From an uncultured Methanosarcinales archaeon (GTDB lineage Archaea > Nanobdellota > Nanobdellia > Woesearchaeales > GW2011-AR9): a DNA stretch of 64,000 nt. The notes under the pieces were generated by a model. It made no database searches. It was not told where the DNA came from and saw only the letters and a list, made by a program, of their open reading frames with translations. The position numbers and the translations under genes are program-made. The number at the start of each line of letters is the position of its first letter. Position 1 is the stretch's first letter. Shown here in pieces: positions 27,520 through 48,071 of this stretch. The stretch is taken from positions 319,585-383,584 of the forward strand of contig CAYFJV010000002.1 in the NCBI GenBank assembly GCA_964343575.1, in the 5' to 3' direction.

Positions 27520-27786
27520 CGATTTTTCTTGCTTTGATTGACTTTTATATCTTTTGTCAAGTTGTCTCTTGGTTCGCACAATTTCTTTCTCAAGAGTAGT
27601 AAACACGTATGTGTTGTATATACTTCTTTGCGGAGCGTTAAACAGAAGTTTTAAATACAAATTACCTCCTCAAAAGTATGTTTTAGAGAGGTTGCTTGGT
27701 AAACTATAAACCTTTAAATACAACTCTGGGGCAAACCTTCCTAGGTGATAGATGGAAGAAAGATGAAGTTTTGGGGTGGAATACTA

Positions 27787-28056
27787 ATGGCTAATAAACC
27801 AATTTTTGAAGTCTTTTTCCGAGAGAAACCTGCTATGATGTTAGTGGAATTGAAGAATGCAAATTCGCAAGTTTATGCATCTGTCTTGGCAAAACAAATT
27901 GACTGCACTTATTCTCATGTGGTAAAAATCTTGCAAGAGATGCAGCGTGCAGAGTTGATCAACTTTCGTAAAGAAGGAAGATTAAAGTTACTTGAGCTTA
28001 CTAATAAAGGTGAGGAGATCGCAAGTAACATTGAAAGCATACGAACTATGTTGTAG
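27787..28056 (+). CDS. Winged-HTH transcriptional regulator
   Basis: YASVLAKQIDCTYSHVVKIL...GRLKLLELTNKG. Confidence 0.85.
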   Translation: MANKPIFEVFFREKPAMMLVELKNANSQVYASVLAKQIDCTYSHVVKILQEMQRAELINFRKEGRLKLLELTNKGEEIASNIESIRTML

Positions 28057-28172
28057 TTCAATTTTTTTCTTTCTTAATTTTCTAGAAGTTATGTCTTAAT
28101 TGGTAAGTTTGCTAGCTTGTAAAAGAAGTAAGGCTGGCAGATGATGCTTTTCTGCCAGTTGAATTTTTATTG

Positions 28173-28388
28173 TCATCTATTTATACAAATGGAATGCTCG
28201 GTTCCAGGATTTCTACAAGTATCCTCAGTTGCTGCGATTCCGTCATCACAATCAAGGTCATCATAACAAGCGATTTGCTCAGCCACAATACCTCCAGTGA
28301 TCCCTCCTCCGCTGCTAATTAACACCGCAATTACTACTAAGACGGCAACTAAAGCCAATCCTAAGAAAAAAATCTTCCCATCACTCAT
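28173..28388 (-). CDS. Small Cys-rich surface protein
   Basis: N-terminal TM, ITGGIV motif, C-x4-C-D-D...T-x-D-x-C. Confidence 0.7.
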   Translation of the reverse strand: MSDGKIFFLGLALVAVLVVIAVLISSGGGITGGIVAEQIACYDDLDCDDGIAATEDTCRNPGTEHSICINR

Positions 28389-28539
28389 TCTTCTTACACC
28401 TCTTAGGCGCTCCAGCGGGCGCCTACGCAAATGTATATTTTTGTTAAACTATTTATACTTTTCGATACTAGCAAAAAGTAATAAAAAAAAATAATTTTTG
28501 GACTTTTTTCACAAGTCCCTCTTTTACCTTTCAGTATTC

Positions 28540-28992
28540 CTATTCAAGGTACATCTTTAGCCGCTTTCTGTCTAATTTCCAGTTTGCAGCTAGGATTCCC
28601 GTCTTTTGATAATACTTTATGAGGCGTCTTACCTTGGAATCGGTAAGGAGCAGCCCTCGTTTAGCGGTTTGATCTTTCTTATTTTTCTCTAAGTGTGCTT
28701 GGATAGCGACTAGTCTTTTGATAAGGTTAAGCAAATCTTCTGGCATTTCTTTTTCGAGTTTGTTCTCTTTAAGGATGCTCCCAAGTTTCTTCTTAGTGCT
28801 TACTTTTACACTTGGAATACCATACTTATCTCTTAGAATCATACCGATTTCGCTCATACTTTTCCCGGTTTTTCGGTACTTTACTACGAGTTTTTCAACT
28901 TCCTGAGCACTATAAGTTACCCATGCTGAGTTAGATTCACTAGGTTTAGAACTTCCTGATTTTCCCTTCTTACGGGAGTGCATTCTTGCCAT
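28540..28992 (-). CDS. rps15: 30S ribosomal protein S15 (uS15, archaeal)
   Basis: MARMHSRKKGKSGS, ILRDKYGIP, PEDL, SKVRRLIKYY. Confidence 0.97.
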   Translation of the reverse strand: MARMHSRKKGKSGSSKPSESNSAWVTYSAQEVEKLVVKYRKTGKSMSEIGMILRDKYGIPSVKVSTKKKLGSILKENKLEKEMPEDLLNLIKRLVAIQAHLEKNKKDQTAKRGLLLTDSKVRRLIKYYQKTGILAANWKLDRKRLKMYLE

Positions 28993-29142
28993 TGTTTTTT
29001 CCTCCAGTACAAACGAGCTTTCACCTGTTTGTCTCTTGTTGGAATGTTTTTAGAGGAGTTATTTATAAACTTTGTGCGTTCACTGTGTTGAGACCCAACC
29101 CAAAATTTTATAAAGATCTTAGCGTGATTTTGAGTTCATTAC

Positions 29143-29246
29143 AGCCCCGTGGTGTAGTGGACTATCATCGCGCTCTTTGGAGCCAGAGAAGTTTACTTTT
29201 TTGGTGGAGTGAAGCGTGGACCGCGGTTCGAATCCGCGCGGGGCTA
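29143..29246 (+). tRNA. tRNA-Gln(TTG) with 31-nt intron (29181-29211); integration target
   Basis: AGCCCCG/CGGGGCT acceptor and TTCGAAT T-loop. The intron sits at 37/38 with a bulge-helix-bulge (CTTT:GGAG helix; GGA and TGA bulges). Confidence 0.92.
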
Positions 29247-29285
29247 TACTCTAAAAGAGGTAATCGGGGGGTGTTGACCCCCTGG

Positions 29286-30368
29286 TTATTTCCTTTCAGT
29301 AATTGTTTTATATTTCCTTTTAACGTGTTTTAACTTCTCAAGGAAATCACTTACATCAGCAAAATAATTCCTGTATCCTTCTTTAATCTGTGCAAGCGAA
29401 TCTCCACTAACTAAAACAACATCATAATTATGTCTCCTACGATTAAGTCTTTCTGCATTGTTATATTGTTCTAATGCTTCCTTCTCCTGTTTTCTTGAGA
29501 AACCAGTGATGGTGATTTTCTTTGCACCTGTATCAAATTCTAGAAGGCAATAAAAAGGGTTTATTTTCCCATTTAGACTTTTAAAGGGTCTGACAGAATG
29601 TGCCCAAATTTGCATCCTGTCAATAACGTTTAAATTTTCTAAAAGATGAATTGCTTCCTTATAAAGTTCAATCTCATTATTTGGGCAGTTGGGTGGTAAG
29701 TTTCTATGTTCCCACCTTGCAAAGATGGCACTTATTAGCAGAAAGAATCTTCTCCAATCTTTAGAACCACCGCCGAATTTGATTGATTGATTTGTAAAAA
29801 AATCATGCATCTCTACTGCAGTAGCCCAGATATGTTGTAGTTTTGTCCTAATCTGGATTTCAATGAGTTTATCATTGTAGATGGATCTTTTTACGGTATC
29901 GCTTTGGTATTTGTATACTATGTGAATCCCTCGATAACCATCTGGTTTGGGATTTTTAATGTAGTCAGTAACACCTACACGAATATGTCGTAACTTACTT
30001 TTCAAAAAGGAGTCTAGCAATTGTTCACATTCAGATACAGTAGATACAACTGATCGACATCCACCAATGTCTTGCATTCTTGATAACTTTGTCCCACCAT
30101 GATCCTTTTTTTTTGAATCCTTTAGTTTTCTAATAATAGAAATAGAACGTTTCAAGCGTTTAACTGTAATTGATTTTGGATCAACTTTTAGTGATTCTCT
30201 TCGAAGCTTGTTCCGCAGGATTTGTAATGGGTAACTATGGCTTGCCCTCCAGTTGAACAAGACAATCATTGCCTTATTTCTCTTATCAAATGTTGATGTC
30301 TCACTTGCCAGTACGTCTCCTGCTTTGTCTGCTTTGCTTTTGGAATACTGGGGTTTTTCCCACTTCAT
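29286..30368 (-). CDS. RelA/SpoT-domain nucleotidyltransferase (small alarmone synthetase-like)
   Basis: RLKRxxSIxxK, MQDIGGCR, DYIKNPKPDGYRGIH, EIQIRTKLQHIWA. Confidence 0.92.
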   Translation of the reverse strand: MKWEKPQYSKSKADKAGDVLASETSTFDKRNKAMIVLFNWRASHSYPLQILRNKLRRESLKVDPKSITVKRLKRSISIIRKLKDSKKKDHGGTKLSRMQDIGGCRSVVSTVSECEQLLDSFLKSKLRHIRVGVTDYIKNPKPDGYRGIHIVYKYQSDTVKRSIYNDKLIEIQIRTKLQHIWATAVEMHDFFTNQSIKFGGGSKDWRRFFLLISAIFARWEHRNLPPNCPNNEIELYKEAIHLLENLNVIDRMQIWAHSVRPFKSLNGKINPFYCLLEFDTGAKKITITGFSRKQEKEALEQYNNAERLNRRRHNYDVVLVSGDSLAQIKEGYRNYFADVSDFLEKLKHVKRKYKTITERK

Positions 30369-30410
30369 ATGCGTAAAATGGTGATCACAATTATAAATCT
30401 ACTGTTTTTT

Positions 30411-30590
30411 CCATATTTCGGGACCAAATTTGAATATAAATCTGGTTTTCATCAGGAGATTGGGAAAATTTCGGGAGAATTACTTTCAACATATTATTAA
30501 AAATAGCTCATTTCTCCCATTAGAAATCTTGCCATATTTCGGGACTAAATTTGAATATAAATCTGGTTTTCATCAGGAGATTGGGAAAAT
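30411..30590. repeat. 59-bp direct repeat, two copies (30411-30469, 30532-30590)
   Basis: CCATATTTCGGGACYAAATTTGAATATAAATCTGGTTTTCATCAGGAGATTGGGAAAAT with one mismatch between copies. Confidence 0.92.
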
Positions 30591-30623
30591 ATGGTCCATA
30601 ATTTAGTGGGTGGTTAATAAAGA

Positions 30624-31445
30624 CTAGTTTGGATCTTGATTCTCAAGATATAAGGAATGAATTTCTTCACTGAATTCTTCTTCTCCTGAGTGAAGATAGT
30701 AGTAAAGTAAGACAATAGACTCTATATCTTCATTAGATGCGATACTTTGGTTAGATGAAAGGTTCTCTGTGATAAATTTAAAGCATTCTTTCAATGTTCT
30801 ATGTAAACTAATATCAGCAGAAAGCTCTAAGCCAATCAGAAAGAACCTTTTTATTAGTTTGGAAGACTTGAATTCTTCAGACAGTTTCAGCTTTTTTCTC
30901 CTGTTTAGGGAGTTGATAAAATGTTCTTCTGGATGTTTAAACACTTTTGAATCAATCTTATAGTTGGATAGTTCTGGATAACTTTCCTTCTTGAAAGCAT
31001 AGACTTTTATTGACATCCCTTGTAAAAAAAAATAAACAAAAGATTCTTCCTTTGGGAAGTGACCACTACCCAACCTGATGTCCGTACCTTCTTGTCTGTA
31101 AGTTAACTCTTCTTTCTTGAACTGTTTATGACAGTCACTAAGGATCTTGTTTACCTGAACAAGATTTCTTTCAATGAAGTACAAATATTCCTTAAAAATT
31201 TCTTCGTAGTTCGCCGAATAATGCCTGTTGTTTCTAACCTTGATGTAAGTAGAAACAGTCAGTTTTTGGTTTGTTTCTTTTTCTCCTTTTGTTGTTTTTC
31301 CCCTTAGTCTTTCAGATACATGGGTGCGTGATTTTTTCAACTCTTTCGCAATTTCTGTCGATGTTGCTTCTTTGAGCTTTATTATTTTGAAGAGAATTTG
31401 GCTGTGGATTTCGTTTTCTATTACTTCTTTCTGAACGAACACCAT
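30624..31445 (-). CDS. wHTH-containing protein (putative repressor)
   Basis: ATSTEIAKELKKSRTHVSERL near the N-terminus; divergent from the RHH operon. Confidence 0.7.
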   Translation of the reverse strand: MVFVQKEVIENEIHSQILFKIIKLKEATSTEIAKELKKSRTHVSERLRGKTTKGEKETNQKLTVSTYIKVRNNRHYSANYEEIFKEYLYFIERNLVQVNKILSDCHKQFKKEELTYRQEGTDIRLGSGHFPKEESFVYFFLQGMSIKVYAFKKESYPELSNYKIDSKVFKHPEEHFINSLNRRKKLKLSEEFKSSKLIKRFFLIGLELSADISLHRTLKECFKFITENLSSNQSIASNEDIESIVLLYYYLHSGEEEFSEEIHSLYLENQDPN

Positions 31446-31558
31446 TAACTAAAGTTGGACGCCACAATACTTAAACCTATCTTTCTCGGCGCCCACCTTT
31501 GCCAAAAAGTGTTAAAATAAAAAGGTTTATATATTTATTGTACCACCTTTAAACAAAA

Positions 31559-31711
31559 ATGGTACATAAAGAAATAAAATCAATTCGGTTGAGCATGGTG
31601 GCCTCTCCTGAGGAGATAGAGAAGATAGATTCCTTTTCTCGTCGAAGGGGTTTGTCTAGGAGCGCATTTCTAAGAAGTGCAGCATTAACTTTCATAGAGA
31701 GACAGTCATAA
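31559..31711 (+). CDS. Ribbon-helix-helix (CopG-like) protein, 50 aa
   Basis: Manual translation MVHKEIKSIRLSMVASPEEIEKIDSFSRRRGLSRSAFLRSAALTFIERQS; TATA upstream; stop overlaps the next ATG. Confidence 0.8.
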   Translation: MVHKEIKSIRLSMVASPEEIEKIDSFSRRRGLSRSAFLRSAALTFIERQS

Positions 31712-31932
31712 TGCCAGTTAACTTGACAAAGGAAGAATGGGATCATTTTCAGGAAATCACCAAGAAAGAGGACTTGTTAACTAAACAGAGTCTGATTTGG
31801 ATTTTCAAGAATTATGACTGGGACCCCAAAACAGGAGAGTTCACTCTATCAGAGACAAGAGGTAATAGTAAACATGGTGAACAACGAGAATTTTTGCAGA
31901 AGTTGTCAATCAAAGATTCCCTGTTGGTCTAA
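31711..31932 (+). CDS. Hypothetical protein
   Basis: ORF translationally coupled to the RHH gene. Confidence 0.5.
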   Translation: MPVNLTKEEWDHFQEITKKEDLLTKQSLIWIFKNYDWDPKTGEFTLSETRGNSKHGEQREFLQKLSIKDSLLV

Positions 31933-32014
31933 CTGCAATGCAGTCTATTGTTCTCCAAAGTGTAAACAATCAGCTTATCGTAAAAGAAATTTAGAATCAA
32001 AAAGAAAAAAGTGA
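31874..32014 (+). CDS. Small zinc-finger protein (CxxC...YCSxxC)
   Basis: MVNNENFCRSCQSK...YCSPKCKQSAYRKR. Confidence 0.65.
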   Translation: MVNNENFCRSCQSKIPCWSNCNAVYCSPKCKQSAYRKRNLESKRKK

Positions 32015-32205
32015 AACAAAAGATGTTCCAGACCAATTGTTTCTAAAAGGTATAACTATGAAAGATCAGAAATTGACTATCTACTTAAAACTTGTTGATT
32101 TCAACAATGTTGAAGAATTAGATTCTTTAGATGATTCTTGGTTTTTTTGGTATAAATCCAATAAGCGCTCTTCACATGAATTTTATCTTGAAGGAGGTTT
32201 AGAAG

Positions 32206-33966
32206 ATGGATAGACATACTGAGAATCTCCTGAATAAAGGAGTTAATACTAATGTTCCTGCTGCAATGCTTAGGTGCGTTCAAAAATGGATAGAGTTTCC
32301 TTCTTTCTCTCAATCTTCTCAAGGAAAAAGCAAATACAGTGATTATCAGATCGCAATAATAAATGAATATTTAGATTTCATTACAATCCCTGAAGCAGAA
32401 TCAAAGATAAAAGAATTGATTTTAACCATGAACCAATGGGGATTTAAGTGTAGCTGGGAGGATTTCTTGGAATTTGCTTCAAAGCATATGAATCGCCCAG
32501 AGGTGAAATCAGATGTTTTGAAAAACCCAATTGAAATAATCTTAAAAGAAACTTCAAAGAAAGTAGTCGAAGAAATTTCTGCACGTAAAGCAATAATTCT
32601 TACGAAGGGAGTTTCCTATGTGATTAATTCACAACCGACTTCTGGAAACCTGATGGTGAATGCGAAATCTGGGACTGGTAAAGATTTTGTTGTTAGGAAT
32701 ACTCTTTCAATATTTCCAAAAGAGAATTCATTAAGGAGAACAAGGATAACGCCTACTCTCTTTAATTATTGGCACAGGGGAGATAGAGAACCAAGTTGGA
32801 CTTGGGATGGAAAGAGTGTTTATCTAGAAGATATCAGTGAAGGCGTCCTTAACAGCCCGGTCTTTAAAGTAATGTCTTCTGGTGGTTCTAACACAACCCT
32901 TGTTATAAACCAAATAGCTTATGACATTCCAATAAACGGAAAACCTTCTTTAATCATAACTACCGCTGCTTCTAATCCAAACAATGAACTTCTGAGGAGA
33001 TTTCCAATAGTAAAACTTGACGAAACAGTTGACCAAACCAAGGCCATTGTTGCCAAGCAAGCAGAAGCAGCGAGTACAGGAGAATCTTTAGAGTATAATT
33101 CGCTTATCCCTAAAGAGTTGTTTAAACTAAGGAGGGTTGAGGTAATAATCCCTTTTGCTGAGAAGATTGTGGAACACCTTCCTTTGAGTATGGATGTGAT
33201 TATGAGAACTAGCTTTTCAAGGTTTCTTGATTACATCAAGAGCAGTGCTGCACTTCATCAGTTTGTAAGAAGTATTGATCATAAAGGAAGAATCATTGCT
33301 GAAGGAGAGGATTATAACCGAGCGAGGGAAGTCCTCTTGGCGACTAACTCTAATCAATCTATGATCCCCTTACCAAGAAATAAAGAAAAAGTTATTGAGC
33401 TGTGGAAGAAAGGAATCCTTGATTATGATAGATATTATTCTACTACAGAAGTTACATCTAAAGTTACCTGGGTCTCTGAGCGTCAAGCAAGAGTGTATCT
33501 AAATCAATTAACTGACATGAAATTTTTGCATTGTAAGCAAAAGAAATGCCAATATAGTTTTAGGCCAGTTAACCATTACAAATTGATTCAACAGGAAAAA
33601 TTAAACCTTCCCCTGTTTTTAGAATTAGAAAAACAAGGTTCTCTCTTAGATGAAGTAAATGAAGTAAATGAGCTAAAAAAGGATGGCATTGTGAATAATA
33701 CTCTAAAACCTTCATTTACTTCCAATACTTCAATATCTTCCAATACTTCATCTACTTCAAATACTGAATTCGCTTCTTCTTTTTGTGTTGATGAAGAAGA
33801 TGTTATCGAAACAAAAGAAGATTTAGCCTTCTCTTACTGTAAAGAGAACGGAGAAGTTCCCATTATGGAACTTCAAGAAAAATTTGGTCTTGAATCAGTT
33901 TCTAAACTTAGGAGTATCGGTAAATTGATGGAATCCAGATCTGGTTTCTTAAGGGTGGTAACATGA
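32206..33966 (+). CDS. P-loop (AAA+/MCM-like) ATPase, putative replication helicase, with C-terminal wHTH
   Basis: Walker A AKSGTGKD, Walker B VYLED, Arg-finger LLRRF; GGAGG RBS. Confidence 0.75.
   Translation: MDRHTENLLNKGVNTNVPAAMLRCVQKWIEFPSFSQSSQGKSKYSDYQIAIINEYLDFITIPEAESKIKELILTMNQWGFKCSWEDFLEFASKHMNRPEVKSDVLKNPIEIILKETSKKVVEEISARKAIILTKGVSYVINSQPTSGNLMVNAKSGTGKDFVVRNTLSIFPKENSLRRTRITPTLFNYWHRGDREPSWTWDGKSVYLEDISEGVLNSPVFKVMSSGGSNTTLVINQIAYDIPINGKPSLIITTAASNPNNELLRRFPIVKLDETVDQTKAIVAKQAEAASTGESLEYNSLIPKELFKLRRVEVIIPFAEKIVEHLPLSMDVIMRTSFSRFLDYIKSSAALHQFVRSIDHKGRIIAEGEDYNRAREVLLATNSNQSMIPLPRNKEKVIELWKKGILDYDRYYSTTEVTSKVTWVSERQARVYLNQLTDMKFLHCKQKKCQYSFRPVNHYKLIQQEKLNLPLFLELEKQGSLLDEVNEVNELKKDGIVNNTLKPSFTSNTSISSNTSSTSNTEFASSFCVDEEDVIETKEDLAFSYCKENGEVPIMELQEKFGLESVSKLRSIGKLMESRSGFLRVVT
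33651..33765. repeat. 9-bp periodic repeats in two orientations inside the ATPase gene
   Basis: (GAAGTAAAT)x2 at 33652-33669, then CTTC recurring every 9 nt six times from 33710. Confidence 0.75.
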
Positions 33967-34130
33967 GTGGCCAGTATTCTAGAAGGTGCAAGAGGTGTAG
34001 TGATGTTTACTCTACGCCAAGAAGGTTCAGCAAATTTTGTCTGAATTGTTGTAGGTGTACACAAGATCCAAGGAAGTATGGAGAAGTTAAAGACAAAAGG
34101 AGTGGTTTTTATGAATTGCATCAGTTGTAA
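33963..34130 (+). CDS. Small zinc-finger protein, 55 aa
   Basis: MSGQYSRRCKRCSD...KFCLNCCRC; ATGA overlap with the ATPase stop. Confidence 0.65.
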   Translation: MSGQYSRRCKRCSDVYSTPRRFSKFCLNCCRCTQDPRKYGEVKDKRSGFYELHQL

Positions 34131-34248
34131 TATTGAAAGATTAGAGCCAGTAATCTACAAGAACAAATATTGGTACTACTGTTTGGAATGTAATAGTTTG
34201 TTCCAAAAAGGAGAGAGTGGATTGAAGAAGAGGATAATGAAATGGTAG
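34111..34248 (+). CDS. Small zinc-ribbon protein, 45 aa
   Basis: MNCISCNI...WYYCLECNSLF; AGGAG upstream. Confidence 0.65.
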   Translation: MNCISCNIERLEPVIYKNKYWYYCLECNSLFQKGESGLKKRIMKW

Positions 34249-34598
34249 ATGAAAGACTAGAGATATTAGGGAGAAAACTCTCTACAGACGGAAGAAGTAA
34301 CACAAAGGTTCTTGAGATGCAAAATGGAAACCGGGAGGCAGTGCAGATTAAAACCAGAAAAAATATGATGAACATTTACCGTTCTCTTCTGAATCTTCAC
34401 CAAAAAAGAAAGAAAGGAGAGATAGTATATCTTGAAAAGGTTAGAAAGGAAGCTGGGATGGATAAAAATAGAGACGCATTTCGTCACGCCCTTTTTAATT
34501 TATGTTATATGAGGAAAAATCCTGTAATGATAAAAGCAAAAATTTCAAGGAACAAGGAAGGAAAAGTAAAGATTCTTCATGAATTAACGCCTAGATGA
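34242..34598 (+). CDS. Hypothetical basic protein
   Basis: ORF in the coupled operon, with a GAGGA RBS. Confidence 0.55.
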   Translation: MVDERLEILGRKLSTDGRSNTKVLEMQNGNREAVQIKTRKNMMNIYRSLLNLHQKRKKGEIVYLEKVRKEAGMDKNRDAFRHALFNLCYMRKNPVMIKAKISRNKEGKVKILHELTPR

Positions 34599-34637
34599 GC
34601 TAAAGCTCATAGGTTACCTACCCTTGGGAGGATTAGA

Positions 34638-34871
34638 ATGTCAGAAAAAGATTATAGAAAAACAGTTAGATTTAACCAAAAAGAACAAGCTGAGTTAGAA
34701 CTTCTCAAGAAAACATTTCATCTAGAAAAGGACTCCGAAGCAATAAAACTGGCTGTGGAGTGGGTAAACCATTACATCAAAAATGTCACAACAACCTTTT
34801 TTCCACCCTCCTTTGAAGTGGTACTCTTGAAGAAATTGAAAACTGAGAAGCTTGACCGAAAGGTTTTCTAG
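34638..34871 (+). CDS. RHH-like DNA-binding protein
   Basis: KTVRFNQKEQAELELLK...SEAIKLAV; GGAGG RBS. Confidence 0.65.
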   Translation: MSEKDYRKTVRFNQKEQAELELLKKTFHLEKDSEAIKLAVEWVNHYIKNVTTTFFPPSFEVVLLKKLKTEKLDRKVF

Positions 34872-34940
34872 CTTTTTTTCTTTGATTTTGTCACAAATTC
34901 TTCGTACTTTGTCTGCCAATTATTGAAGGAGAAGAAATTT

Positions 34941-36656
34941 TTATTGATTAAGCCCGGTTATCTTCTTTTTTAGTTCAATGAGACTTTTGTGTAGATTTGA
35001 GTGCCAATGCCTAAACTCAACTCCTCTCCAAGCACTTATTTTCTCTTGTCTTTTTATGGCTAGTTCTAGAAAATCATTTAGGTTAAGCCCAAAGTTTTTT
35101 TCAATAAAAGAATCGTATTTTCTTTGTTCTAAACTGTACAATAAAAGATATGAATCAAATTCTAAGAAATAATAAGCAGGGAATGATCTATATCTCTCAT
35201 CTTTTTCAGAAACAGAATCAATTAAAAAAATGACCTCTGCTAGTTGTTGTTGTTTTAACTTAGTTAGTGGTTCTTCTTTAGTAGTTCCTGGAAAGAGAAA
35301 CTCAAACAATTTTTTTGGTTCTTCTCCAAGTGACTTAAGGTACCAGATTTTTGCATTATAGATAAGTGGGACCATTTGATACGTGTTGTAGTATTTACTT
35401 GGATGAAATATGAAACTAATATCCTCATCTTCACAATTAACTTCCATAAGAGTAGAGAAAATAATCTCTGAAATGAGAATGTATGGGATGTTCAATATAG
35501 TTGTGTAGCCATTACCAATAGTTATTTCTTCAAACAGGAGAAGAAATCTAAAGTTCTCTTTAATCAAGGACGTTTTATTGTAACGTGCAAGACACTGAAA
35601 AATAACTCTTAAAGGTGTTATTTTATCTCTACAAGCTTCAAAGCAACCTAAGAACGAAGAAGGATCTCCCTTGAAATTTTTGATCAAATCTTTTATCTCT
35701 TTGTAAGCTTTACTAATTCTATCTTTTATGTTTATATCTAACTCAATTAGTTTATTTTCTTCTATCAATGATAAGATCTCTGATTCAAATCCTTCTAGTT
35801 CTGGCCCTTGAAATGATGGATCTGGGAGTTTTTCTACTTTTAGATCCAGCTTTGATGGAAATCTTTTTCCCTCCTCTGGGATTTTAGGTACTGTAAAGTC
35901 TTCTGAATTACTCTGAAACTGTGGTGTCTGTGAACCGTTAGTCAAATCGATAACTAGTTTAGTTGTCTCCTCACTAACTTTTTTGAAAGGAACATAATCT
36001 TCGGAAGAACCTTTCAGAACTTTAACAAGAGAGTGTGTAAAAAGCCCGTGCTCAACAACCCCATTTTCATGAGAGTACTCCTTTGAATCACAACCTGTAG
36101 CAATGGCTGAACCACTTCCTGGAGCAACTAATCTAATTAGTTCTCTCTTTGAAAATGATCTCAACTTAAACTTAGAAAGGTCTCTTCTCAAAGCACTGCC
36201 ACTCTTACAAGCGTCAAGAATTAGGAGTTTATGTTTTGATCTAATGAGCTCTACTGACTGTTTTAGTTCTGAAAGTTTTATTCCCGTCTCTTTTGCATAT
36301 GATGGATTAAAATTGTGTGGACAAATAAAACTATTATCTGCCCTCGGATTTTCGTCGTCAATTGTGATTCCATGTCCTGCGAAGAAAATAATAACATAAT
36401 CTTCCTCTCTAACATCTGTTCCAGATAAGTCTGTCAGTGCACAAAGAATATTTTCCTTGGTTGCTTGTTCATCACAAAGAATTTTATTGATTCCAGAATG
36501 GTAGTGCTTATAGGAAGAAAAAATAAGATTTGCATCTTTCGCACAGTAGTCTAACTGATAACCTGAACTCATGTTAGGATATTTGTTTACCCCTACGCAA
36601 AGTAGATGTATTCTACTACTCATCTCCTTTCCCTCCTCTGAAGGTGTAATCTCCAA
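34941..36656 (-). CDS. Caspase-family (peptidase C14) protein with unknown C-terminal domain
   Basis: VGVNKY, FFAGHG (His), ILDACKSG (Cys), HGLFT, QTP. Confidence 0.9.
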   Translation of the reverse strand: MEITPSEEGKEMSSRIHLLCVGVNKYPNMSSGYQLDYCAKDANLIFSSYKHYHSGINKILCDEQATKENILCALTDLSGTDVREEDYVIIFFAGHGITIDDENPRADNSFICPHNFNPSYAKETGIKLSELKQSVELIRSKHKLLILDACKSGSALRRDLSKFKLRSFSKRELIRLVAPGSGSAIATGCDSKEYSHENGVVEHGLFTHSLVKVLKGSSEDYVPFKKVSEETTKLVIDLTNGSQTPQFQSNSEDFTVPKIPEEGKRFPSKLDLKVEKLPDPSFQGPELEGFESEILSLIEENKLIELDINIKDRISKAYKEIKDLIKNFKGDPSSFLGCFEACRDKITPLRVIFQCLARYNKTSLIKENFRFLLLFEEITIGNGYTTILNIPYILISEIIFSTLMEVNCEDEDISFIFHPSKYYNTYQMVPLIYNAKIWYLKSLGEEPKKLFEFLFPGTTKEEPLTKLKQQQLAEVIFLIDSVSEKDERYRSFPAYYFLEFDSYLLLYSLEQRKYDSFIEKNFGLNLNDFLELAIKRQEKISAWRGVEFRHWHSNLHKSLIELKKKITGLNQ

Positions 36657-36775
36657 TAAGAATTTTGACTTCTTTTAGCATATGTGTTTATTCTTATTGT
36701 TGTTATTAAAGATTTCACTCCTGCACGATTATTAAGAAACATTTATATCTCTGGAAGTTATTACTTTGTAATAAC

Positions 36776-37366
36776 GTGGATGTTAAGAAGCTTTATGAAG
36801 AGAGGTTAAGGAATTACCTTGATCCTCCTTTTGAAGAGATAACTGGGAAGGTATTCAAGGTAGGGAATAGCCATGCCGTAATGATTAGAAAAGAAATTCT
36901 TCATAAACTAAAGATAGGGGTGGGAGATTCAGTGGTTGGTTCACTGTCCCCAGTAAGAGACTTCAAAGAAGAGGAAAAGATCTACGAAGATTTAAAGTAC
37001 AAAATTAGTCTGGGTGGTTTCTCTAAAGAAGAAACAATGAATTTCTGGTCTTTTCTTAATCTTTACTTTGAAGGTGTAAAGGAAATCCCCAAGAAGATAA
37101 CAAAAGATTATGACAAAATTAGAGGGTTCCTCGAAGAAGATGTTCTAGATGTTAACTTAGAGCCACCACTTAGTTCTCTTGTTCAAGGTTTGAAACAAGA
37201 TGGTACTCTAAGCAAGAAAGAGATTGATTTATTTTTATCGAAGGTGCTGAACTGGTTTTTAGATGGAAAGAAGAAAGAACTCATAGATTATTTTGATGAT
37301 GAGAAGAAGTGGAAAGGAAAACTCGAAGCAGTTATCAGTAAACACAAGGAGCTTATGAAAAAATAA
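36776..37366 (+). CDS. AbrB/MazE-like DNA-binding domain protein
   Basis: KVFKVGNSHAVMIRKEILHKLKIGVGDSV. Confidence 0.75.
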   Translation: MDVKKLYEERLRNYLDPPFEEITGKVFKVGNSHAVMIRKEILHKLKIGVGDSVVGSLSPVRDFKEEEKIYEDLKYKISLGGFSKEETMNFWSFLNLYFEGVKEIPKKITKDYDKIRGFLEEDVLDVNLEPPLSSLVQGLKQDGTLSKKEIDLFLSKVLNWFLDGKKKELIDYFDDEKKWKGKLEAVISKHKELMKK

Positions 37367-37367
37367 A

Positions 37368-38078
37368 ATGGATTGGAAGAAGGATACCGAAGCCCAGGAA
37401 CTTTGGTACGATAAGAAAAAGCGAGGAGAGAGGAATCCTGAGCTTAATTACCAGAAGTATATCACTCCAATGGAATGGGAGATCATTAAAAAATGGGTGA
37501 ATGACCTTCGTTCTCCTTCCATGAAAGAATTAATTTTTACTATTGCCTACCTTGGAATGAGAAGAGGAGAAGCTATAACTCTTAAAAGATCCAATTTCAA
37601 CAGTGATTTTTCTGCAGTAAGATTTTTCCTCTTGAAGAAAAGAAAAGGAAGACAACTCATTGAGAGAGTAGTTCCCAAAGTTTTACAGGAGAGGTTGGTA
37701 AAGTATAACCGGAAGTACAACCACAAGTATAGGAATGGGTATTTCTTCTTTCCTTATGGGAGTCAAAGTAAGAATGATCATATTCAGGGATCTAGCCTTG
37801 GGCATGCTTTCAAGAAGATGAGAAGAGAGACAGGTTTACTTGATAGCTACCATGTTGTTAACCAGAGAAACATGAAGAAGAAACTTTATCGAATTTCTCC
37901 TCACACTTTAAGACATTACTTTGCTTGGAGAGCTCATAAAAGTAGCAATCATAACATGAGAGCGGTTCAACAACTTTTGGGTCATGCTGACATCAGAACC
38001 ACTATGAAGTATGTTCATGCACTTGCAATGAAGGATGAAGAACTGGATATTGTGAACAAAGCTGCGGATATGCTGTAG
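37368..38078 (+). CDS. Tyrosine recombinase (catalytic domain only, Xer-like)
   Basis: GMRRGEA, PHTLRH, LLGH, TTMKY. Confidence 0.93.
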   Translation: MDWKKDTEAQELWYDKKKRGERNPELNYQKYITPMEWEIIKKWVNDLRSPSMKELIFTIAYLGMRRGEAITLKRSNFNSDFSAVRFFLLKKRKGRQLIERVVPKVLQERLVKYNRKYNHKYRNGYFFFPYGSQSKNDHIQGSSLGHAFKKMRRETGLLDSYHVVNQRNMKKKLYRISPHTLRHYFAWRAHKSSNHNMRAVQQLLGHADIRTTMKYVHALAMKDEELDIVNKAADML

Positions 38079-38148
38079 TTAAATTTTTTTACCGCTTTTT
38101 CAAAGTAAACTAAGAATCCTAAAATAAGGGAGACTTAAAAAAACATTC

Positions 38149-39081
38149 CTATTCTTCAATCTGTAAAATAAGCTCTTTGTATTTCTTTATAGCTTCAACA
38201 GCTTTATCTTTACTTTTATTACCTTTTTTATAACTCTCAACATTATCAATTAATCCAGATAGGAATGAATTGGCAACTAACCTTGAGTATGAAAGTTTAT
38301 TTCCAGATATTTTTTCGTATGACGCAACAATATATCTAAAGTAATCCGGAAAATCCCGAATGTATCGAGAGAACTCCTTAGCAATCTCTCCATATTCTGT
38401 ATTCCCATAATCAATAAAACCAGATATTTGTCCATCCTTAACCAAAACATTTTCGTGATGTGCATCATTATGAATAAATTGAAACTTAGCATTTTCTTTA
38501 ATATTAGTTTTATCAAATATTTCTTTAGCTTTTTTAGCTAAATTTTTGAATGTTTCAGGTACCTCTGCGTCATCAAGTATCTCTTTATATTCTTCCAGAG
38601 TTTCTGGATGCAACCCTGTTGATAGATCGATTTTTATTCCGCGCTTGATTGATTTCCTCTTTGATTTCTTTTTACCAATTTCTGCATGAAATCTACCTAG
38701 TGATCCACAAATACTTATCTTTTCTTCTTCTGATAAGCGATTCCAAACAGTCTTCAAAGTATCTCCTTCAATAAAATCATACCCGTACATTTCTGGTTTT
38801 TCAGAAAAAAAAGCAATTTTCGCAATAGGAATGGACAAATCTAAATTATTTAAGAACTGTGCAATCTTTACCTCAGTCAGTAGTGAGTTTTGTGGAGTAA
38901 ACTCCTTTTTTTCCAACTCTTTTTTAACAATATACCTGTCGCCCTCCAAGGTTTCAATGTAATAAGCATAGTTACAAGCTCCTTTTCCTATCAAAAAAAC
39001 TTTTGAAACATTTTTTCCTAAAATCTTCTTAATCTTATTTTTGATAGTTTCTTCCATTAACCCTTTAGAGAAGTTCTTCAT
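38149..39081 (-). CDS. Aminoglycoside phosphotransferase-family kinase
   Basis: IGKG, HNDAHHENVL (Brenner motif), IDYG. Confidence 0.88.
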   Translation of the reverse strand: MKNFSKGLMEETIKNKIKKILGKNVSKVFLIGKGACNYAYYIETLEGDRYIVKKELEKKEFTPQNSLLTEVKIAQFLNNLDLSIPIAKIAFFSEKPEMYGYDFIEGDTLKTVWNRLSEEEKISICGSLGRFHAEIGKKKSKRKSIKRGIKIDLSTGLHPETLEEYKEILDDAEVPETFKNLAKKAKEIFDKTNIKENAKFQFIHNDAHHENVLVKDGQISGFIDYGNTEYGEIAKEFSRYIRDFPDYFRYIVASYEKISGNKLSYSRLVANSFLSGLIDNVESYKKGNKSKDKAVEAIKKYKELILQIEE

Positions 39082-39269
39082 CCTTTAGTTGCCCCATATT
39101 ATCCTTTCTTTCATAACCGAAATAGAACGTTTTAACTTATAAAACTTCACTTCAAAAAAAGAATTCTTAGCGGTAAAAAACTTGTCGCTACGCTCCATTC
39201 AGGTATAAAGCCTGAAAAGCTTAACATTGTTCTATAAACTTTTTAAGTAACTATTTCACTTTTGTTTTT

Positions 39270-39644
39270 ATGGCGAGAAAAATCTCAGAGAGAGAGATCC
39301 TCAGACTTAGTGAGAATGAAATTCAGAAGATTGAGAGAGTTAACAAGTCCATTGAAAAAAAAGAAAATGCGATTGCAAGTAAGGAATCTCAGATGAAACT
39401 AAGGACCCTCTTTGAGAGAGCTCCGGAAGAGACATTAGCGTTCATTGTATATTGTATTTATATCGGTTCTGCAGGAATGCTTGGCTTCCTGTATATTATT
39501 ACCAAGTTTCAGGACACATTACTTTATACCTTGTTAATTCTTCTAGCCCTCCTAATGATTCTTCCCCTGTTCATTCTTCCAAAATTCAGTTTGAAGAAAT
39601 TTTTCCTATGGTTATCTGATTTACTATCTAAGAGAAGAAATTAG
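39270..39644 (+). CDS. Two-TM membrane protein
   Basis: Coiled N-terminus plus two hydrophobic helices. Confidence 0.65.
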   Translation: MARKISEREILRLSENEIQKIERVNKSIEKKENAIASKESQMKLRTLFERAPEETLAFIVYCIYIGSAGMLGFLYIITKFQDTLLYTLLILLALLMILPLFILPKFSLKKFFLWLSDLLSKRRN

Positions 39645-40609
39645 GCAGTTTGTTTCTTTGATGGTTCTAGTTCTCTAAAATTACTAATGAGGAAGTCGAT
39701 TTCTATGATTAGAGTCCAGATATAGCCTTTCAGCTCAAGTATTGAGCATTCATTCTTATTGTGTACTAGTGAATTTCTAACTTTTCTAATAGAATCAATT
39801 ACTTCTCTTCTTCCAGTTTTTTTGTGTTTTGAAGGAAAGTTGACTTCATTGAGTTTACTAACTGCATCTTTAAATCCAATTTTATCCTTCAACTTGGGAT
39901 TTATTGTAAAAAGCTGACTAAACACAAGTTTCTCGTAAGCTGCGTAAAGATGAAGTAGTGAACTTGTTAATAGGGAAAGAAGTTTATCTTTGATTTTTTC
40001 TGGTGATCCTAAACTAATCTCTTTCTGGAGTGATTCAATAAATATTTGGATTGCATGTTTAAAAGAAAGTGATGATGCTTCAAGGTACCAGTGTGCTCTT
40101 GGATTTAAATCCCGTTCTAGTGTTAAGGTAAATCTTCTCTTGATGTTGAAAATTTTTTCCCTTAGATCTGGATGGTTAACCTTAATATTTCTTTCAAATG
40201 AAACATATGAACTCTCAATGCTTTTGCTCAGAATATTGATCATCTCTTGATTATTTATAATTAGTTCATTTGCTTTATCAAAAAATATGTTAGTGATATC
40301 TATGACTTTGTTAACATTAGAACAAGAAATGTCTTTCACTTCTGAGATAAGTGTTTTAGTATCTTCTCTTCTTTTTTTGGCGAGCTCTTGAATGTTGGGT
40401 ATCTCTATTTTAGAAAGATGTGCTTTATAGTCTTGTAAGGTTCTTATTAATTCTTTCTTGCTCTCGAGTTTTGCAGTAGAGATTGAATGCCCCTGGTATG
40501 GTCTGAGATTCAGTTCCATTCCAATGCGACTTACGTTAATATAGATTAGATTCGTAAGTCTATTGTTCTTAATAAGGAAAGAAATAATTTTTATTGCTTC
40601 CAAATCCAT
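39641..40609 (-). CDS. Putative HEPN-domain protein
   Basis: C-terminal RNSLVH (Rx4H) preceded by AAYE. Confidence 0.6.
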   Translation of the reverse strand: MDLEAIKIISFLIKNNRLTNLIYINVSRIGMELNLRPYQGHSISTAKLESKKELIRTLQDYKAHLSKIEIPNIQELAKKRREDTKTLISEVKDISCSNVNKVIDITNIFFDKANELIINNQEMINILSKSIESSYVSFERNIKVNHPDLREKIFNIKRRFTLTLERDLNPRAHWYLEASSLSFKHAIQIFIESLQKEISLGSPEKIKDKLLSLLTSSLLHLYAAYEKLVFSQLFTINPKLKDKIGFKDAVSKLNEVNFPSKHKKTGRREVIDSIRKVRNSLVHNKNECSILELKGYIWTLIIEIDFLISNFRELEPSKKQTA

Positions 40610-40649
40610 ACCTATCTCTGTTTTTATTGATTTAAATACTTATGGGGGC

Positions 40650-41894
40650 TCAGATACTTTTAATCATTCTCAGGACCTTATTTGCTTTCCCAGACTCAAT
40701 ATTCTTTTTTGCCAGTTCCCTCATAATTATCTCCATCTGTTCGTTGACTTTCTCCATTTCTGCTCTATGCGCTTCATCTCTCAAGGTAATCTCTTCCTTT
40801 AGCTTAGAGATTTTTCTATCAAGCTCTGTTTTAGATATGTCAACGTAAAGGTCTTCGTGTTGGATTGTATCTTTCATTCCTAAAAATTCAGTATAATAGA
40901 TAATCATTCTTGACTTCACCCAGCCAAATCTGTACTTCAAAGCAGACTCAGAACGATATCTTGGGAGCCAGTAGCAAGCAGAACTATGTCGAAAATCATA
41001 CATTGAGATTCCGTTTTTGATCCAAGCAAGCTTTCTTTTTTCTTGTTTCCCCTTGTAAACTCCTTCTCCAACATTAAGTAATTTATAGCCCAACTTGGAA
41101 ATGTACTCATTTATCTTATGAGCTCTTTTTGTAAAAAGGAGATCGTCACCTTCAAACATTCTCCCATTGACATATTTTCTTAGAATCTCCGAACAGAGAA
41201 GGAGTTTTATCTTTCTTCCGAATGTCTTTGAAATGTCATCTCTTATATTTAACATGAAGTGACCTTTTTCATTGTCCCATTCTAAATCAGATAGTCTTGT
41301 GTTTAGTAGTTCTGTGGGAGATCTAATTCCCGAATCAAACATGAACATCATTATGACTTTGTAGTCAAATTTTGCGTGATCACAGAGCGTCTGAAGTTGT
41401 TCGATTGTAAAATAGTTGAATTTTGGTTTATAGTCTTCCCTAGCATCAATATCAATGGTGATGTCTTCAAGGATTTCTCCTTCTCTCTTGGAAGCTTTCA
41501 TTAACCAGTGCCAGAATGCTTTGAACGATTTTACATAAGTTCCAACAGCTCTATAAGTCCTTCCTGTACGTTTGGATATGAACTTCCCTTTCCTCATGCC
41601 GTTGAAGAAATTCATTAGCTCATCTTCTGTTACCTTTTTTACGCTGTTTTTAGAGCAGTACTCTTGAATTAGTAAAATTACTGAGTGAAGCTTAGACTTT
41701 TGATTTCTAAGCCTACCATAGCTTCTAGGGCCCTTTTTAGAGCCAAGGCCAATATTTTTCCCAAGCTCCATATCTTGTAGGTACCTGATAATCAATTCCC
41801 TATTCTCCTCAGAAAGACCTTTGAGGATCATCCCTTTGCTCTTCCAACTGTTGTAGTATCTTTCATGTTGGTGGGGATCGATTTTCTTGTTCAT
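40650..41894 (-). CDS. int: Tyrosine integrase of the island
   Basis: SGIRSPTEL, KT, YDFRHS, FGW...YY; lies just inside attR. Confidence 0.88.
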   Translation of the reverse strand: MNKKIDPHQHERYYNSWKSKGMILKGLSEENRELIIRYLQDMELGKNIGLGSKKGPRSYGRLRNQKSKLHSVILLIQEYCSKNSVKKVTEDELMNFFNGMRKGKFISKRTGRTYRAVGTYVKSFKAFWHWLMKASKREGEILEDITIDIDAREDYKPKFNYFTIEQLQTLCDHAKFDYKVIMMFMFDSGIRSPTELLNTRLSDLEWDNEKGHFMLNIRDDISKTFGRKIKLLLCSEILRKYVNGRMFEGDDLLFTKRAHKINEYISKLGYKLLNVGEGVYKGKQEKRKLAWIKNGISMYDFRHSSACYWLPRYRSESALKYRFGWVKSRMIIYYTEFLGMKDTIQHEDLYVDISKTELDRKISKLKEEITLRDEAHRAEMEKVNEQMEIIMRELAKKNIESGKANKVLRMIKSI

Positions 41895-41950
41895 TGATGT
41901 ATTTTTAGAAAAATGACTTCTTAAAACTTGTTGATACCCTTGATTTGGTG

Positions 41951-41967
41951 GAATCCGCGCGGGGCTA
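41951..41967 (+). repeat. attR (duplicated 3' end of tRNA-Gln)
   Basis: Identical to 29230-29246. Confidence 0.92.
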
Positions 41968-42051
41968 CTTTTTTTCTTCTACTGTTTTACCTATCCAGAA
42001 AGTAAATATTTAAGTACCTTCTTGGAAAACCGGCTTTTTGAGGTGAATCTT

Positions 42052-42135
42052 ATGGATGAATGTACGCAATGTCAGGTAGAAGTCAAAGAAGTCTGCAACT
42101 CCTGTAGCGCTTGTGGTTCTTGTTGCGAGTGTTAA
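42052..42135 (+). CDS. 27-aa Cys-rich metallothionein-like peptide
   Basis: MDECTQCQVEVKEVCNSCSACGSCCEC* (8 Cys); GAGGTGA RBS 5 nt before the ATG. Confidence 0.75.
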   Translation: MDECTQCQVEVKEVCNSCSACGSCCEC

Positions 42136-42211
42136 ACTTAATTTTTTCTTTTTCTCTTATTGATAATCTGTCTCAATAAGTATTATAAATAGTCTCTTTT
42201 ACAAGCTCTGT

Positions 42212-43168
42212 ATGAGAATAGCTTTTCTTGGAAAAGGAGGTAGTGGAAAAAGTACTCTAGCTGCTGCTTTTATCAAACATGTCTCTTCACAAAAGCAAAT
42301 TCTTGCAATTGATGCTGATGTTAACCAACATTTGGCTCCTTTACTTGAGATCACGCCAAGAAAAGAAAATTTGGGTGATTCTGTTGCTTTTATACAAAAA
42401 TATGTTCTTGGAAAAAGAAATGGTCTTGAAGCTAGTGAGGTTGTTGGAACACTCCCTCCAACAATGGATTCAACTTTTATTGTGCCAAAGGTCGGAGATC
42501 CATTTATTGATAAGTTTGCAGTCACCAAAGATAACATCTCTCTAATGCGCGTAGGAACTTATGAAGGTAAAGATATTGGTAGTGCTTGTTACCATAGCAA
42601 ATTAGCATCATTAGAATTATTTTTTCATTATCTTTTAGATAAAAGAAACGAGTATATTATTGTTGATTCAACTGCGGGGACAGATATTCTTGGGACTTCT
42701 TTGCATATGGCTTATGATGTGTTAGTATTTGTTATTGAACCAACTGCAAAGTCTGTACAAGTGTTTAAAGATTTTATAGAACGTTTCGATTCAACACGAG
42801 TTCGAGTTGTGGCACTTGGGAATAAAGTTGAAGATGGAGATGATAAAGAGTTCCTTAGGAAGAATGTTGGACATGAATATCTTCTTGGTTTTGTTCCTTA
42901 CTCAAAGAAGGTGCGGCGTTTTGAACAAGGAGACGAGCAAGCTTTTACAGATTTTGTAGCATCGAATAATGGGCTGTTTTCAAATGTTCTTGAAGATATT
43001 GGTTACCTAAAAAGAGATTGGGCAGAGTATCTCATACATCTTTCTAAAGTTCACAAAAAGACTTGTGAGAAATGGTATGATGAGTATTACAAAAAAAAGA
43101 TCTCTGAGCTTGTTGACAGCTCTTTTTCCTATGAGAAGGCAATGGAGATAAATAGAAATGACAATTGA
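42212..43168 (+). CDS. CooC/MinD-like P-loop ATPase
   Basis: MRIAFLGKGGSGKST, AIDAD, ACYH, VDSTAG, GNK. Confidence 0.85.
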   Translation: MRIAFLGKGGSGKSTLAAAFIKHVSSQKQILAIDADVNQHLAPLLEITPRKENLGDSVAFIQKYVLGKRNGLEASEVVGTLPPTMDSTFIVPKVGDPFIDKFAVTKDNISLMRVGTYEGKDIGSACYHSKLASLELFFHYLLDKRNEYIIVDSTAGTDILGTSLHMAYDVLVFVIEPTAKSVQVFKDFIERFDSTRVRVVALGNKVEDGDDKEFLRKNVGHEYLLGFVPYSKKVRRFEQGDEQAFTDFVASNNGLFSNVLEDIGYLKRDWAEYLIHLSKVHKKTCEKWYDEYYKKKISELVDSSFSYEKAMEINRNDN

Positions 43169-44792: not shown

Positions 44793-44863
44793 TTCGTGCA
44801 GTGATCAAGAGTAGGGATTAGTTTTGGGAGTGTTCTTGAGGATAAAACATTGATAAGATTATT

Positions 44864-47534: not shown

Positions 47535-47561
47535 AGAGAATGAGTAAAATACATTTAGAAA

Positions 47562-48071
47562 TTACTCCTTAAACAACTCAATTGCTTTCTTTACTTCTTC
47601 TTTAATTCCTTTCAGACAATCATACTGTTCTACTTCATCAACATTAACCCAAGCATGATCGGTAAACCCACCTTCTTCTAAAACAACATCTCCAGATTTG
47701 TACTTTGCAGCAAGTTTGACCATCATTACAGGAATGCCATCTGCTCTTACAAAAGCAACACTGGTGATATACTTGAAGTCGTCGTGTAGTTCAATGCCTG
47801 CTTCTTCACGAGTTTCTCTTTTCAAAAGATCTTCTAGTGCGCCTACGAAATCGTAAATATCTCCATTCATTCTTGTAGGGTTATTAAGATCAAGATCTTT
47901 CCATTCAAGTTTGCCACCTGGCGTTGCATACTTTCCTGGATGCGCTTTTTCTCTTTCATGTCTTTTGAGAATTAAACATCTTCCATCTTCTCTGTATACC
48001 AAGACGTTTGCTACAAAGTAAAAGAGCTTATTTTGTTTAGCATGTTCTGTAGAAATCTTTTCAGCTGGCAT
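47562..48071 (-). CDS. NUDIX hydrolase
   Basis: PGGKLE...LKRETREEAG. Confidence 0.9.
   Translation of the reverse strand: MPAEKISTEHAKQNKLFYFVANVLVYREDGRCLILKRHEREKAHPGKYATPGGKLEWKDLDLNNPTRMNGDIYDFVGALEDLLKRETREEAGIELHDDFKYITSVAFVRADGIPVMMVKLAAKYKSGDVVLEEGGFTDHAWVNVDEVEQYDCLKGIKEEVKKAIELFKE

Follow-up and report, generated by a model that had tools for sequence, protein, structure and literature searches.

We have analysed a stretch of 64,000 nucleotides (the window) from an uncultured archaeon of the Woesearchaeales (assembly GCA_964343575.1, contig CAYFJV010000002.1); its genome of 1.21 Mb is called G000 below, and positions without a contig or locus name are those of the window. An element of 12.7 kb, positions 29230..41967, is delimited by a pair of attachment (att) sites, a tRNA-Gln gene and its base composition. 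Our preferred reading, to which we give a probability of about 0.65, is that this element is an integrative plasmid, excised as a circle by its own integrase and replicated by a helicase-like ATPase from mirrored repeats which lie inside the gene of that ATPase.

Integration into the tRNA-Gln gene

29143..29246, forward strand: tRNA-Gln(UUG), intact after integration; Rfam tRNA match of 41.4 bits
29181..29211, forward strand: tRNA intron, 31 nucleotides, position 37/38, with a bulge-helix-bulge pairing read by eye
29230..29246, forward strand: attL core, 17 bp, at the T-loop start directly after TTC
41951..41967, forward strand: attR core, 17 bp, followed by a T-rich trailer such as stands behind tRNA-Gln in relatives
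40650..41894, reverse strand: tyrosine integrase, 414 amino acids (aa), gene unsplit; start 57 bp inward from attR

The att core GAATCCGCGCGGGGCTA is present in two exact copies in the window, with no third copy at up to three mismatches and a shuffle expectation of 0.01, and the whole genome holds only these two copies. When the intron is removed a tRNA of 73 nucleotides results, which ARAGORN calls as Gln(ttg); on the unspliced genome the same program called a tRNA-Pro, and this was overruled by the Rfam match together with the call for the spliced form. No other copy of this tRNA with the same 5' end was found in the genome. An initial annotation made from the letters alone had proposed the perfect 17-bp att pair, the intron-containing tRNA-Gln as target and the integrase at attR, and all three are borne out. 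The att site of a relative, L036, likewise starts in the T-loop just past TTC. In the relatives L018, L019, L024, L027 and L028 the intron of tRNA-Gln(UUG) is found in the D-arm, at the anticodon or in the T-arm, or there is none.

The GC content is 34.5% in the element versus 39.6% in the comparison, the two lowest-GC windows of 12.7 kb in the genome both overlap the element, and its tetranucleotide distance from the chromosome is larger than that of all 90 chromosome windows. The trailer contains 75% T after attR and 25% after attL; this is the pattern expected if the integration displaced the original tRNA trailer, which now stands behind attR. Broken genes were not seen within the element. 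It is confirmed as a genuine site-specifically integrated element.

Fourteen tRNA-Gln regions of relatives were taken, of which 11 had a tRNA end matching the pattern; the three non-matching ones do not enter the trailer statistics. A single core copy and a trailer of 58-83% T are present at each of the 11 matched loci, and neither integrase nor helicase was found in the tRNA-Gln regions (0/14). The distance from the tRNA to the next conserved gene is 963 bp in the same-genus genome G001 versus 19,452 bp here. The alternative that relatives carry the genes of the element as a stable core was tested and finds no support: the integration site is empty in G001, and the helicase is absent from 120/120 relatives. 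DNA similarity of the element to G001 or G002 is limited to pieces of 31-66 bp. The helicase is carried by 1 of 121 genomes of relatives and, by profile, by 10 of 401 genomes of the phylum, G000 being included in both counts.

A cluster of 6 kb behind attR (42212-48071) codes for a CooC/MinD-like ATPase, CobW, a pyridoxal-phosphate-dependent decarboxylase, a cysteine-synthase-like and a NUDIX-like protein. It is missing at the site of G001, none of 40 relatives (0/40) has its first gene, and it reads as a separate acquisition at the same spot. Because this cluster is also missing from relatives, the right border was set by the att copy, the trailer and the GC content and not by gene content. 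Elsewhere in G000 another stretch of low GC content, which has a recombinase at one edge (C2:436000-450000), gave no att pair, and a simple repeat scan found no CRISPR array in the genome.

The helicase and the mirrored repeats

32206..33966, forward strand: MCM-type AAA+ ATPase with winged helix, 586 aa; precomputed family PF27228
33650..33676, forward strand: left repeat array, three units of 9 bp, ATGAAGTAA twice and one degenerate
33707..33769, reverse strand: right repeat array, six units with the core CTTC, repeated every 9 bp, and one degenerate unit, in opposite orientation

The 586-aa protein is built from an AAA+ domain (residues ~97-389), a winged helix (~389-465), a linker encoded by the repeats and a small C-terminal domain. 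Its AlphaFold model has a mean pLDDT of 84, and the best structural matches are the AAA+ domains of MCM proteins (Z 18.5 for PfMCM-AAA, root-mean-square deviation 3.6 over 260 aligned residues), followed by RavA (Z 15.1), Cch (Z 12.1) and SaPIbov1 Rep (Z 9.3). Foldseek also gives MCM as top matches and likens residues ~389-465 to winged helices; a sequence search of the PDB gave weak winged-helix matches only. Canonical MCM proteins carry an N-terminal tier of zinc finger and OB fold. The element's helicase matches them in the type of its AAA+ domain but not in this tier, which must be missing because only ~95 residues stand ahead of the ATPase domain; these are helical and of low confidence in the model, and many homologues have almost none. 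In BFVD the best named structural match, ahead of the MCMs, is ORF A460 of the Sulfolobus virus SSVK1 (E 3.5e-14), which differs in that its identity is 14% and that it belongs to a complete spindle-shaped virus.

Nearly all of the 101 close homologues are tagged PF27228, and the positions of a lysine, an acidic pair and an arginine are conserved across them. Primase-type domains occur in 4 of 102 helicase search matches. In the element itself no primase family was found among its 18 open reading frames (ORFs) with Pfam, PHROGs and NCBIfam, save for a match with E 0.008 on a Cys-rich micro-ORF. We predict from the fold that the ATPase is a self-loading replication helicase. A quick version of the helicase tree has low support and is unresolved around this protein. 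The initial annotation had spoken of a helicase-like ATPase, which agrees with the MCM-type AAA+/winged-helix fold; it had overlooked the 9-bp arrays within the gene. Neither the family nor the replicon was found described in the literature searched, outside which lies the study of DPANN viruses and mobile elements by Wu et al. (2024, Nat Microbiol 9:3362).

The two arrays are separated by a spacer of 30 bp with 70% AT, and in an autocorrelation scan they rank as the top 9-bp inverted pair genome-wide, with a score of 22.5 versus 16.5 for the next of 11 pairs in all. Similar arrays were sought up to 450 bp from the end of the winged helix in 91 helicase loci whose 3' end is complete, which at 80% identity collapse into 75 distinct helicases. 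Opposed 9-bp arrays stand behind the winged helix in 38/75, and an equal stretch of the ATPase domain, used as control, gave 0/75. Other periods are hardly found (6, 7, 10, 11 and 12 in 0/75 each, 8 in 2/75). Since eight of the pairs lie wholly past the stop codon and ten span it, the arrays must be a feature of the DNA and not a peptide repeat. Relatives differ in their repeat words, and the longer array commonly counts ~6 units. By analogy with the staphylococcal pathogenicity islands (SaPI) the mirrored arrays are likely to form a candidate replication origin of the SaPI style. A sigma-70 promoter scan stayed at chance level, with a model which does not suit archaea.

Relatives of the helicase in other elements and viruses

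Among helicase loci of at least 10 kb, 14 of 23 hold a tyrosine recombinase, profile seeds included, and att pairs 7-13 kb apart were found at tRNA ends in L036, L040, L120, L170 and L172. Terminal repeats of 114-126 bp on four contigs (L035, L082, L093 and L116), two of them with an integrase, suggest that these contigs are circles. One of them, L093, codes for an integrase 40% identical to that of the element, a primpol-fused helicase and a serine resolvase.

The family is also found in tailed viruses with terminase and portal genes (L047, L048, L051). In three further loci small hydrophobic capsid-like genes stand beside the helicase and a second ATPase (L046:6364-7353, L050:3632-4431, L091:5100-5721), as pairs in L046 and L050; they have no Pfam match, and the two that were scanned have no PHROG match. 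We presume that these three loci resemble spindle-shaped viruses of DPANN archaea. A second AAA+ ATPase is present in 10 of 35 helicase loci of at least 7 kb, seven of the ten being profile seeds, and phrog_5484 was matched in 2/4 scanned. Integrase, helicase and second AAA+ ATPase occur together, with no capsid-like gene by profile, in L032:12751-13539, L057:12641-13495 and L093:9631-10518, and by their gene content these loci appear to be better satellite candidates than the element here.

Contig C3 of G000 (L181, L182; 34,939 bp) is a near-whole tailed-virus genome with terminase, portal, protease, major capsid, tail, Cas4-like nuclease and methylase genes; no integrase match and no terminal repeat were found on it. 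It may be a virus of the host or a binning error, the link to the host being binning alone. Neither DNA nor protein similarity was detected between C3 and the element.

The recombinases

Homologues of the integrase of 380-430 aa align over at least 90%. The gene is whole after integration, as in elements with type II (unsplit) archaeal integrases. The nearest named integrases are in records of Woesearchaeota and Nanoarchaeota, which points to a DPANN host of Woesearchaeota type, likely a tiny symbiont. The clade is found in 17 of 301 genomes of the order, G000 included. Twelve of the other 16 genomes were examined over 11-19 kb fetched from each; the helicase was nearby in 0/12, and the neighbours were a PrgI/VirB4-like ATPase in three, a weak rolling-circle Rep in one and a TIR-NACHT-TPR gene in one. 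Since the integrase is found without the helicase in 12/12, the element can be seen as a mosaic in which an integrase from a tRNA-Gln clade is combined with a replicon that is widely shared. Three of the 12 loci, among the closest members to the integrase, are at tRNA-Gln. The integrase lies at attR here and in most relatives directly behind the tRNA. An identical integrase with a later start is found on an ENA contig of 10,350 bp.

37368..38078, forward strand: second tyrosine recombinase of 236 aa, consisting of the catalytic domain alone, with R, K, H, R, H and Y present

The second recombinase of the initial annotation is real, a tyrosine catalytic domain with these catalytic residues, and it is possibly a dimer resolvase; that it marks a nested element would be another possible reading. 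It has four close homologues, and none was found in 300 genomes of the order or in viral contigs.

Several loci of the integrase clade deserve mention for themselves. PrgI-fused VirB4/TraG-type ATPases stand beside the integrase in L164:7710-10688, L169:8029-11154 and L179:630-3518, which are candidate conjugative elements of the archaeal order. Three att copies at tRNA-Gln in L163 (1525, 6465, 9750) represent tandem insertions, one with the TIR-NACHT-TPR gene, and two convergent integrases of the clade lie side by side in L164:515-3411. Within G000, the start of an 18.5-kb contig (C4:283-3564; L183) holds two more tyrosine recombinases with small ORFs, probably another mobile element.

Regulators and cargo genes

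30624..31445, reverse strand: winged helix-turn-helix (wHTH) protein, 273 aa, motif N-terminal; weak matches, HTH_5 E 0.01 and Lrs14 E 0.002
31559..31711, forward strand: ribbon-helix-helix (RHH, CopG-type) protein, 50 aa, RHH_1 E 5e-5; first gene of the operon
31711..32213, forward strand: three small overlapping ORFs of 73 aa, 46 aa (Cys-rich, from 31874) and 51 aa (from 32058); weak PHROG matches only
33963..34871, forward strand: ORFs behind the helicase, two Cys-rich micro-ORFs, 118 aa and 77 aa; zinc ribbon E 0.012 only
29286..30368, reverse strand: RelA/SpoT-type nucleotidyltransferase, 360 aa, Pfam E 1e-18; full-length PADLOC PDC-S33 match E 5e-111
30408..30469 and 30529..30590: a 62-bp direct repeat in two copies upstream of the RelA gene; identity 97%, distance 121 bp
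34941..36656, reverse strand: caspase-domain protein, 571 aa, with His and Cys motifs; Peptidase_C14 E 5e-19, PADLOC caspase E 7e-11
36776..37366, forward strand: protein with an AbrB/MazE-like N-terminal domain, 196 aa, TIGR02609 E 4e-6, below cut-off; coupled to the second recombinase
38149..39081, reverse strand: APH-family phosphotransferase, 310 aa, far under all resistance-gene cut-offs
39270..39644, forward strand: 124-aa protein with two hydrophobic stretches and no family match
39641..40609, reverse strand: protein of 322 aa, RxxxxH-like motif; HEPN suggested weakly only, by Pfam E 0.05 and Atlas 0.84

The divergent wHTH/RHH switch claimed for the element is present, with a clear RHH and a weak wHTH match. 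The wHTH protein is likely a repressor divergent from the replication operon, and in several relatives a reverse-strand ORF occupies the same position (by eye); the RHH protein is likely a copy-number regulator or an autorepressor. The coupled operon of Zn-finger micro-ORFs around the helicase was accepted in part: start and stop codons overlap at several junctions, but only three micro-ORFs are Cys-rich, these have weak or no family matches, and the Zn-finger label does not hold for the 73-aa and 51-58-aa ORFs.

The cargo genes proposed earlier are present, and the caspase and APH domains are clear in Pfam. The cargo is possibly in part defence-like, judging from the PDC-S33 RelA/SpoT and caspase matches. 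The RelA/SpoT protein is patchy (6/76 genomes including G000), and the 62-bp direct repeat has no further copy in the genome. A search of the 322-aa and 124-aa ORFs in Atlas gave no named match of at least 0.9.

The plasmid model and its alternatives

In the model, recombination between attP and the T-loop end of the tRNA, carried out by the integrase, would have rebuilt the tRNA and shifted its trailer by 12.7 kb. The two regulators of the divergent switch, wHTH and RHH, would silence the operon or set the copy number. After excision a hexamer of the helicase would bind the repeats through its winged helices and load itself as the SaPI Reps do; having no primase of its own, it would borrow the primase and polymerase of the host. 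Dimers would be resolved by the short second recombinase, and RelA/PDC-S33, the caspase and perhaps the HEPN-like ORF might as defence cargo pay for the carriage.

Several observations weigh against this model. The empty sites come from other species, which also are without the 6-kb cluster after attR, and the public read run X1, a very shallow one, gave on 27000-46000 six short contig pieces, four inside the element and none junction-spanning, so that it is too shallow to judge and holds no attP or empty-attB read for the host species. The helicase family is also viral and is no plasmid marker. Its Walker A motif is GKD and its Walker B motif ED, where the canonical forms are GK[ST] and DE, and the activity is a prediction only; it should be noted that these letters are a family trait and not decay, because they are conserved across the family. 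As to the repeats, 37/75 relatives have no detectable arrays, the arrays of the element sit in coding DNA, the spacer with 70% AT versus 65.5% in the element is barely enriched, and the similarity of repeats correlates weakly with that of winged helices (rho 0.14 with p 0.013; partial 0.15; without correction for kinship). Finally, an excerpt of PMC4234260 states that the Rep of pRN1 did not specifically bind a comparable region in vitro.

The initial annotation left the choice between an integrative plasmid and a virus satellite, and it is the plasmid which is favoured. A satellite like the phage-inducible chromosomal islands (PICI) or pSSVx would have the same integrase and replicon and would be induced and packaged by a helper virus. 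The SaPI-like layout and origin, the 35-kb tailed-virus contig C3 binned with the genome, the second AAA+ ATPase in the 10/35 helicase loci mentioned above and the spindle-virus satellites known in nanohaloarchaea (in the part of bioRxiv 2025.02.15.638363 drawn on) are in line with this, and we nevertheless consider it unlikely. No capsid or conjugation family was recognised among the 18 ORFs with Pfam, PHROGs and NCBIfam, as had been claimed, at the level of family profiles, where unrecognised folds are possible; there is no terminase match either, and profiles of the satellite ATPase and the capsid-like proteins (from 7 and 5 proteins of relatives) match nothing in the element. The helper candidate C3 shares no similarity with the element and is linked to the host by binning alone. 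Equally doubtful is a far wider idea, according to which a primase-less MCM-type helicase and mirrored 9-bp repeats (often ~6+3), in or just after its own gene, are the archaeal counterpart of the self-loading Rep/ori of SaPI and drive a broad and so far undescribed set of mobile elements in DPANN archaea, from integrative plasmids and satellites to spindle-like and tailed viruses, the element being a satellite of the co-binned tailed virus and so a parasite of a parasitic archaeon's virus.

A provirus remnant which has lost its structural genes is very improbable. The helicase family does occur in the tailed viruses L047, L048 and L051 and in the spindle-virus-like contigs L046, L050 and L091, but the att pair is perfect, broken genes are not seen, relatives of 7-13 kb without capsid genes, their att pairs intact, are found repeatedly, and the helicase of the element stands apart from the viral rows in the quick tree (low support). 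The least probable alternative is a stranded defence island, integrated once and inherited with the chromosome only, its replicon silent or dead. That excision was not seen in the shallow run X1, that 12/12 closest-integrase genomes are without the helicase in the 11-19 kb fetched, and that several of these are small cargo islets would fit such an island; the unameliorated composition, the unmutated att pair, the intact catalytic residues and the intact repeat arrays are at variance with it.

Significance

Elements integrated in tRNA genes are ordinary in archaea. None of Woesearchaeota was found in the literature searched, outside which lies the study by Wu et al. cited above, where such elements may be described, and a recent survey, in the part available, had 30 provirus regions only for Thermoplasmatota and Nanobdellota combined (PMC13573593). 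Taken by itself the element adds a new case from a sparsely sampled host group, and its added value is the replicon, in which a candidate origin of 120 bp and a candidate initiator are held within one gene of 1.8 kb. Because they share one gene and the repeat words of relatives differ, binding and its specificity can be tested in vitro without culture of the host. If the model is true, the replicon would offer a minimal system for self-loading of MCM type and perhaps a backbone for vectors in DPANN archaea, for which to our knowledge no genetic tools exist. The element also points to a possible route for defence-type genes among Woesearchaeota-like archaea.

Comparison with known systems

SaPI and PICI combine an integrase with divergent regulators, a layout like that of the element. 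The papers cited in this section are represented by partial texts, and the likenesses and differences hold for these. SaPI origins consist of 6-12 opposed short repeats past rep, to which the winged helix of Rep binds (PMC9371898; bioRxiv 10.64898/2026.10.17.759575). With the Rep2 type of SaPI/PICI the element shares an MCM-type ATPase with C-terminal winged helix and, at the end of the gene for it, short repeats in two opposite orientations. It differs in its archaeal host, the lack of a primase gene, the in-frame arrays and the strict 9-bp period; it has no clearly AT-rich core, and no packaging or helper-interference genes were found. To SaPIbov1 Rep the structural similarity is distant only (Z 9.3). 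Because the element is without primase, AT-rich core and packaging genes, its replication can be called SaPI-like, but it is not a member of the SaPI.

The pRN1 family shares a small repressor gene heading the replication operon, and pRN1 has an essential inverted structure of ~100 bp at the 3' end, conserved by shape and not by sequence; it differs by its primpol-SF3 Rep and by an origin downstream of the gene, interpreted as a stem-loop (PMC4234260). pSSVx differs in having a viral AAA+ ATPase which is absent here (bioRxiv 2025.02.15.638363), and by gene content the element does not appear to be a satellite of the pSSVx/SRCE type. Plasmids of the pT26-2 family share tRNA integration in archaea and exchangeable MCM or MCM-like replication modules, and those of Methanococcales have unsplit type II integrases as here; the family has other hosts and is defined by a core gene set (PMC6972569).

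The closest likeness is to the cryptic integrated elements (CIE) described from Thaumarchaeota (Krupovic et al. 2019, PMC6563490), which have a tyrosine integrase, a median att length of 17 bp and a size below 20 kb, and are found at the 3' ends of tRNA genes including intron-containing ones. Shared with the element are the tyrosine integrase, the short att, the tRNA 3' end, the size below 20 kb, a replication helicase and the lack of virion and conjugation genes. The host group differs, the helicase belongs to a short AAA+/winged-helix family distinct both from the host type of MCM and from primpol-SF3 fusions, and the excerpt of PMC6563490 makes no mention of a repeat origin. The integrase lies inside the att repeats, the target tRNA is restored, the site is empty in other species and no virion or conjugation genes were recognised; the element is best read as a plasmid-like cryptic integrated element in the loose definition of that term.

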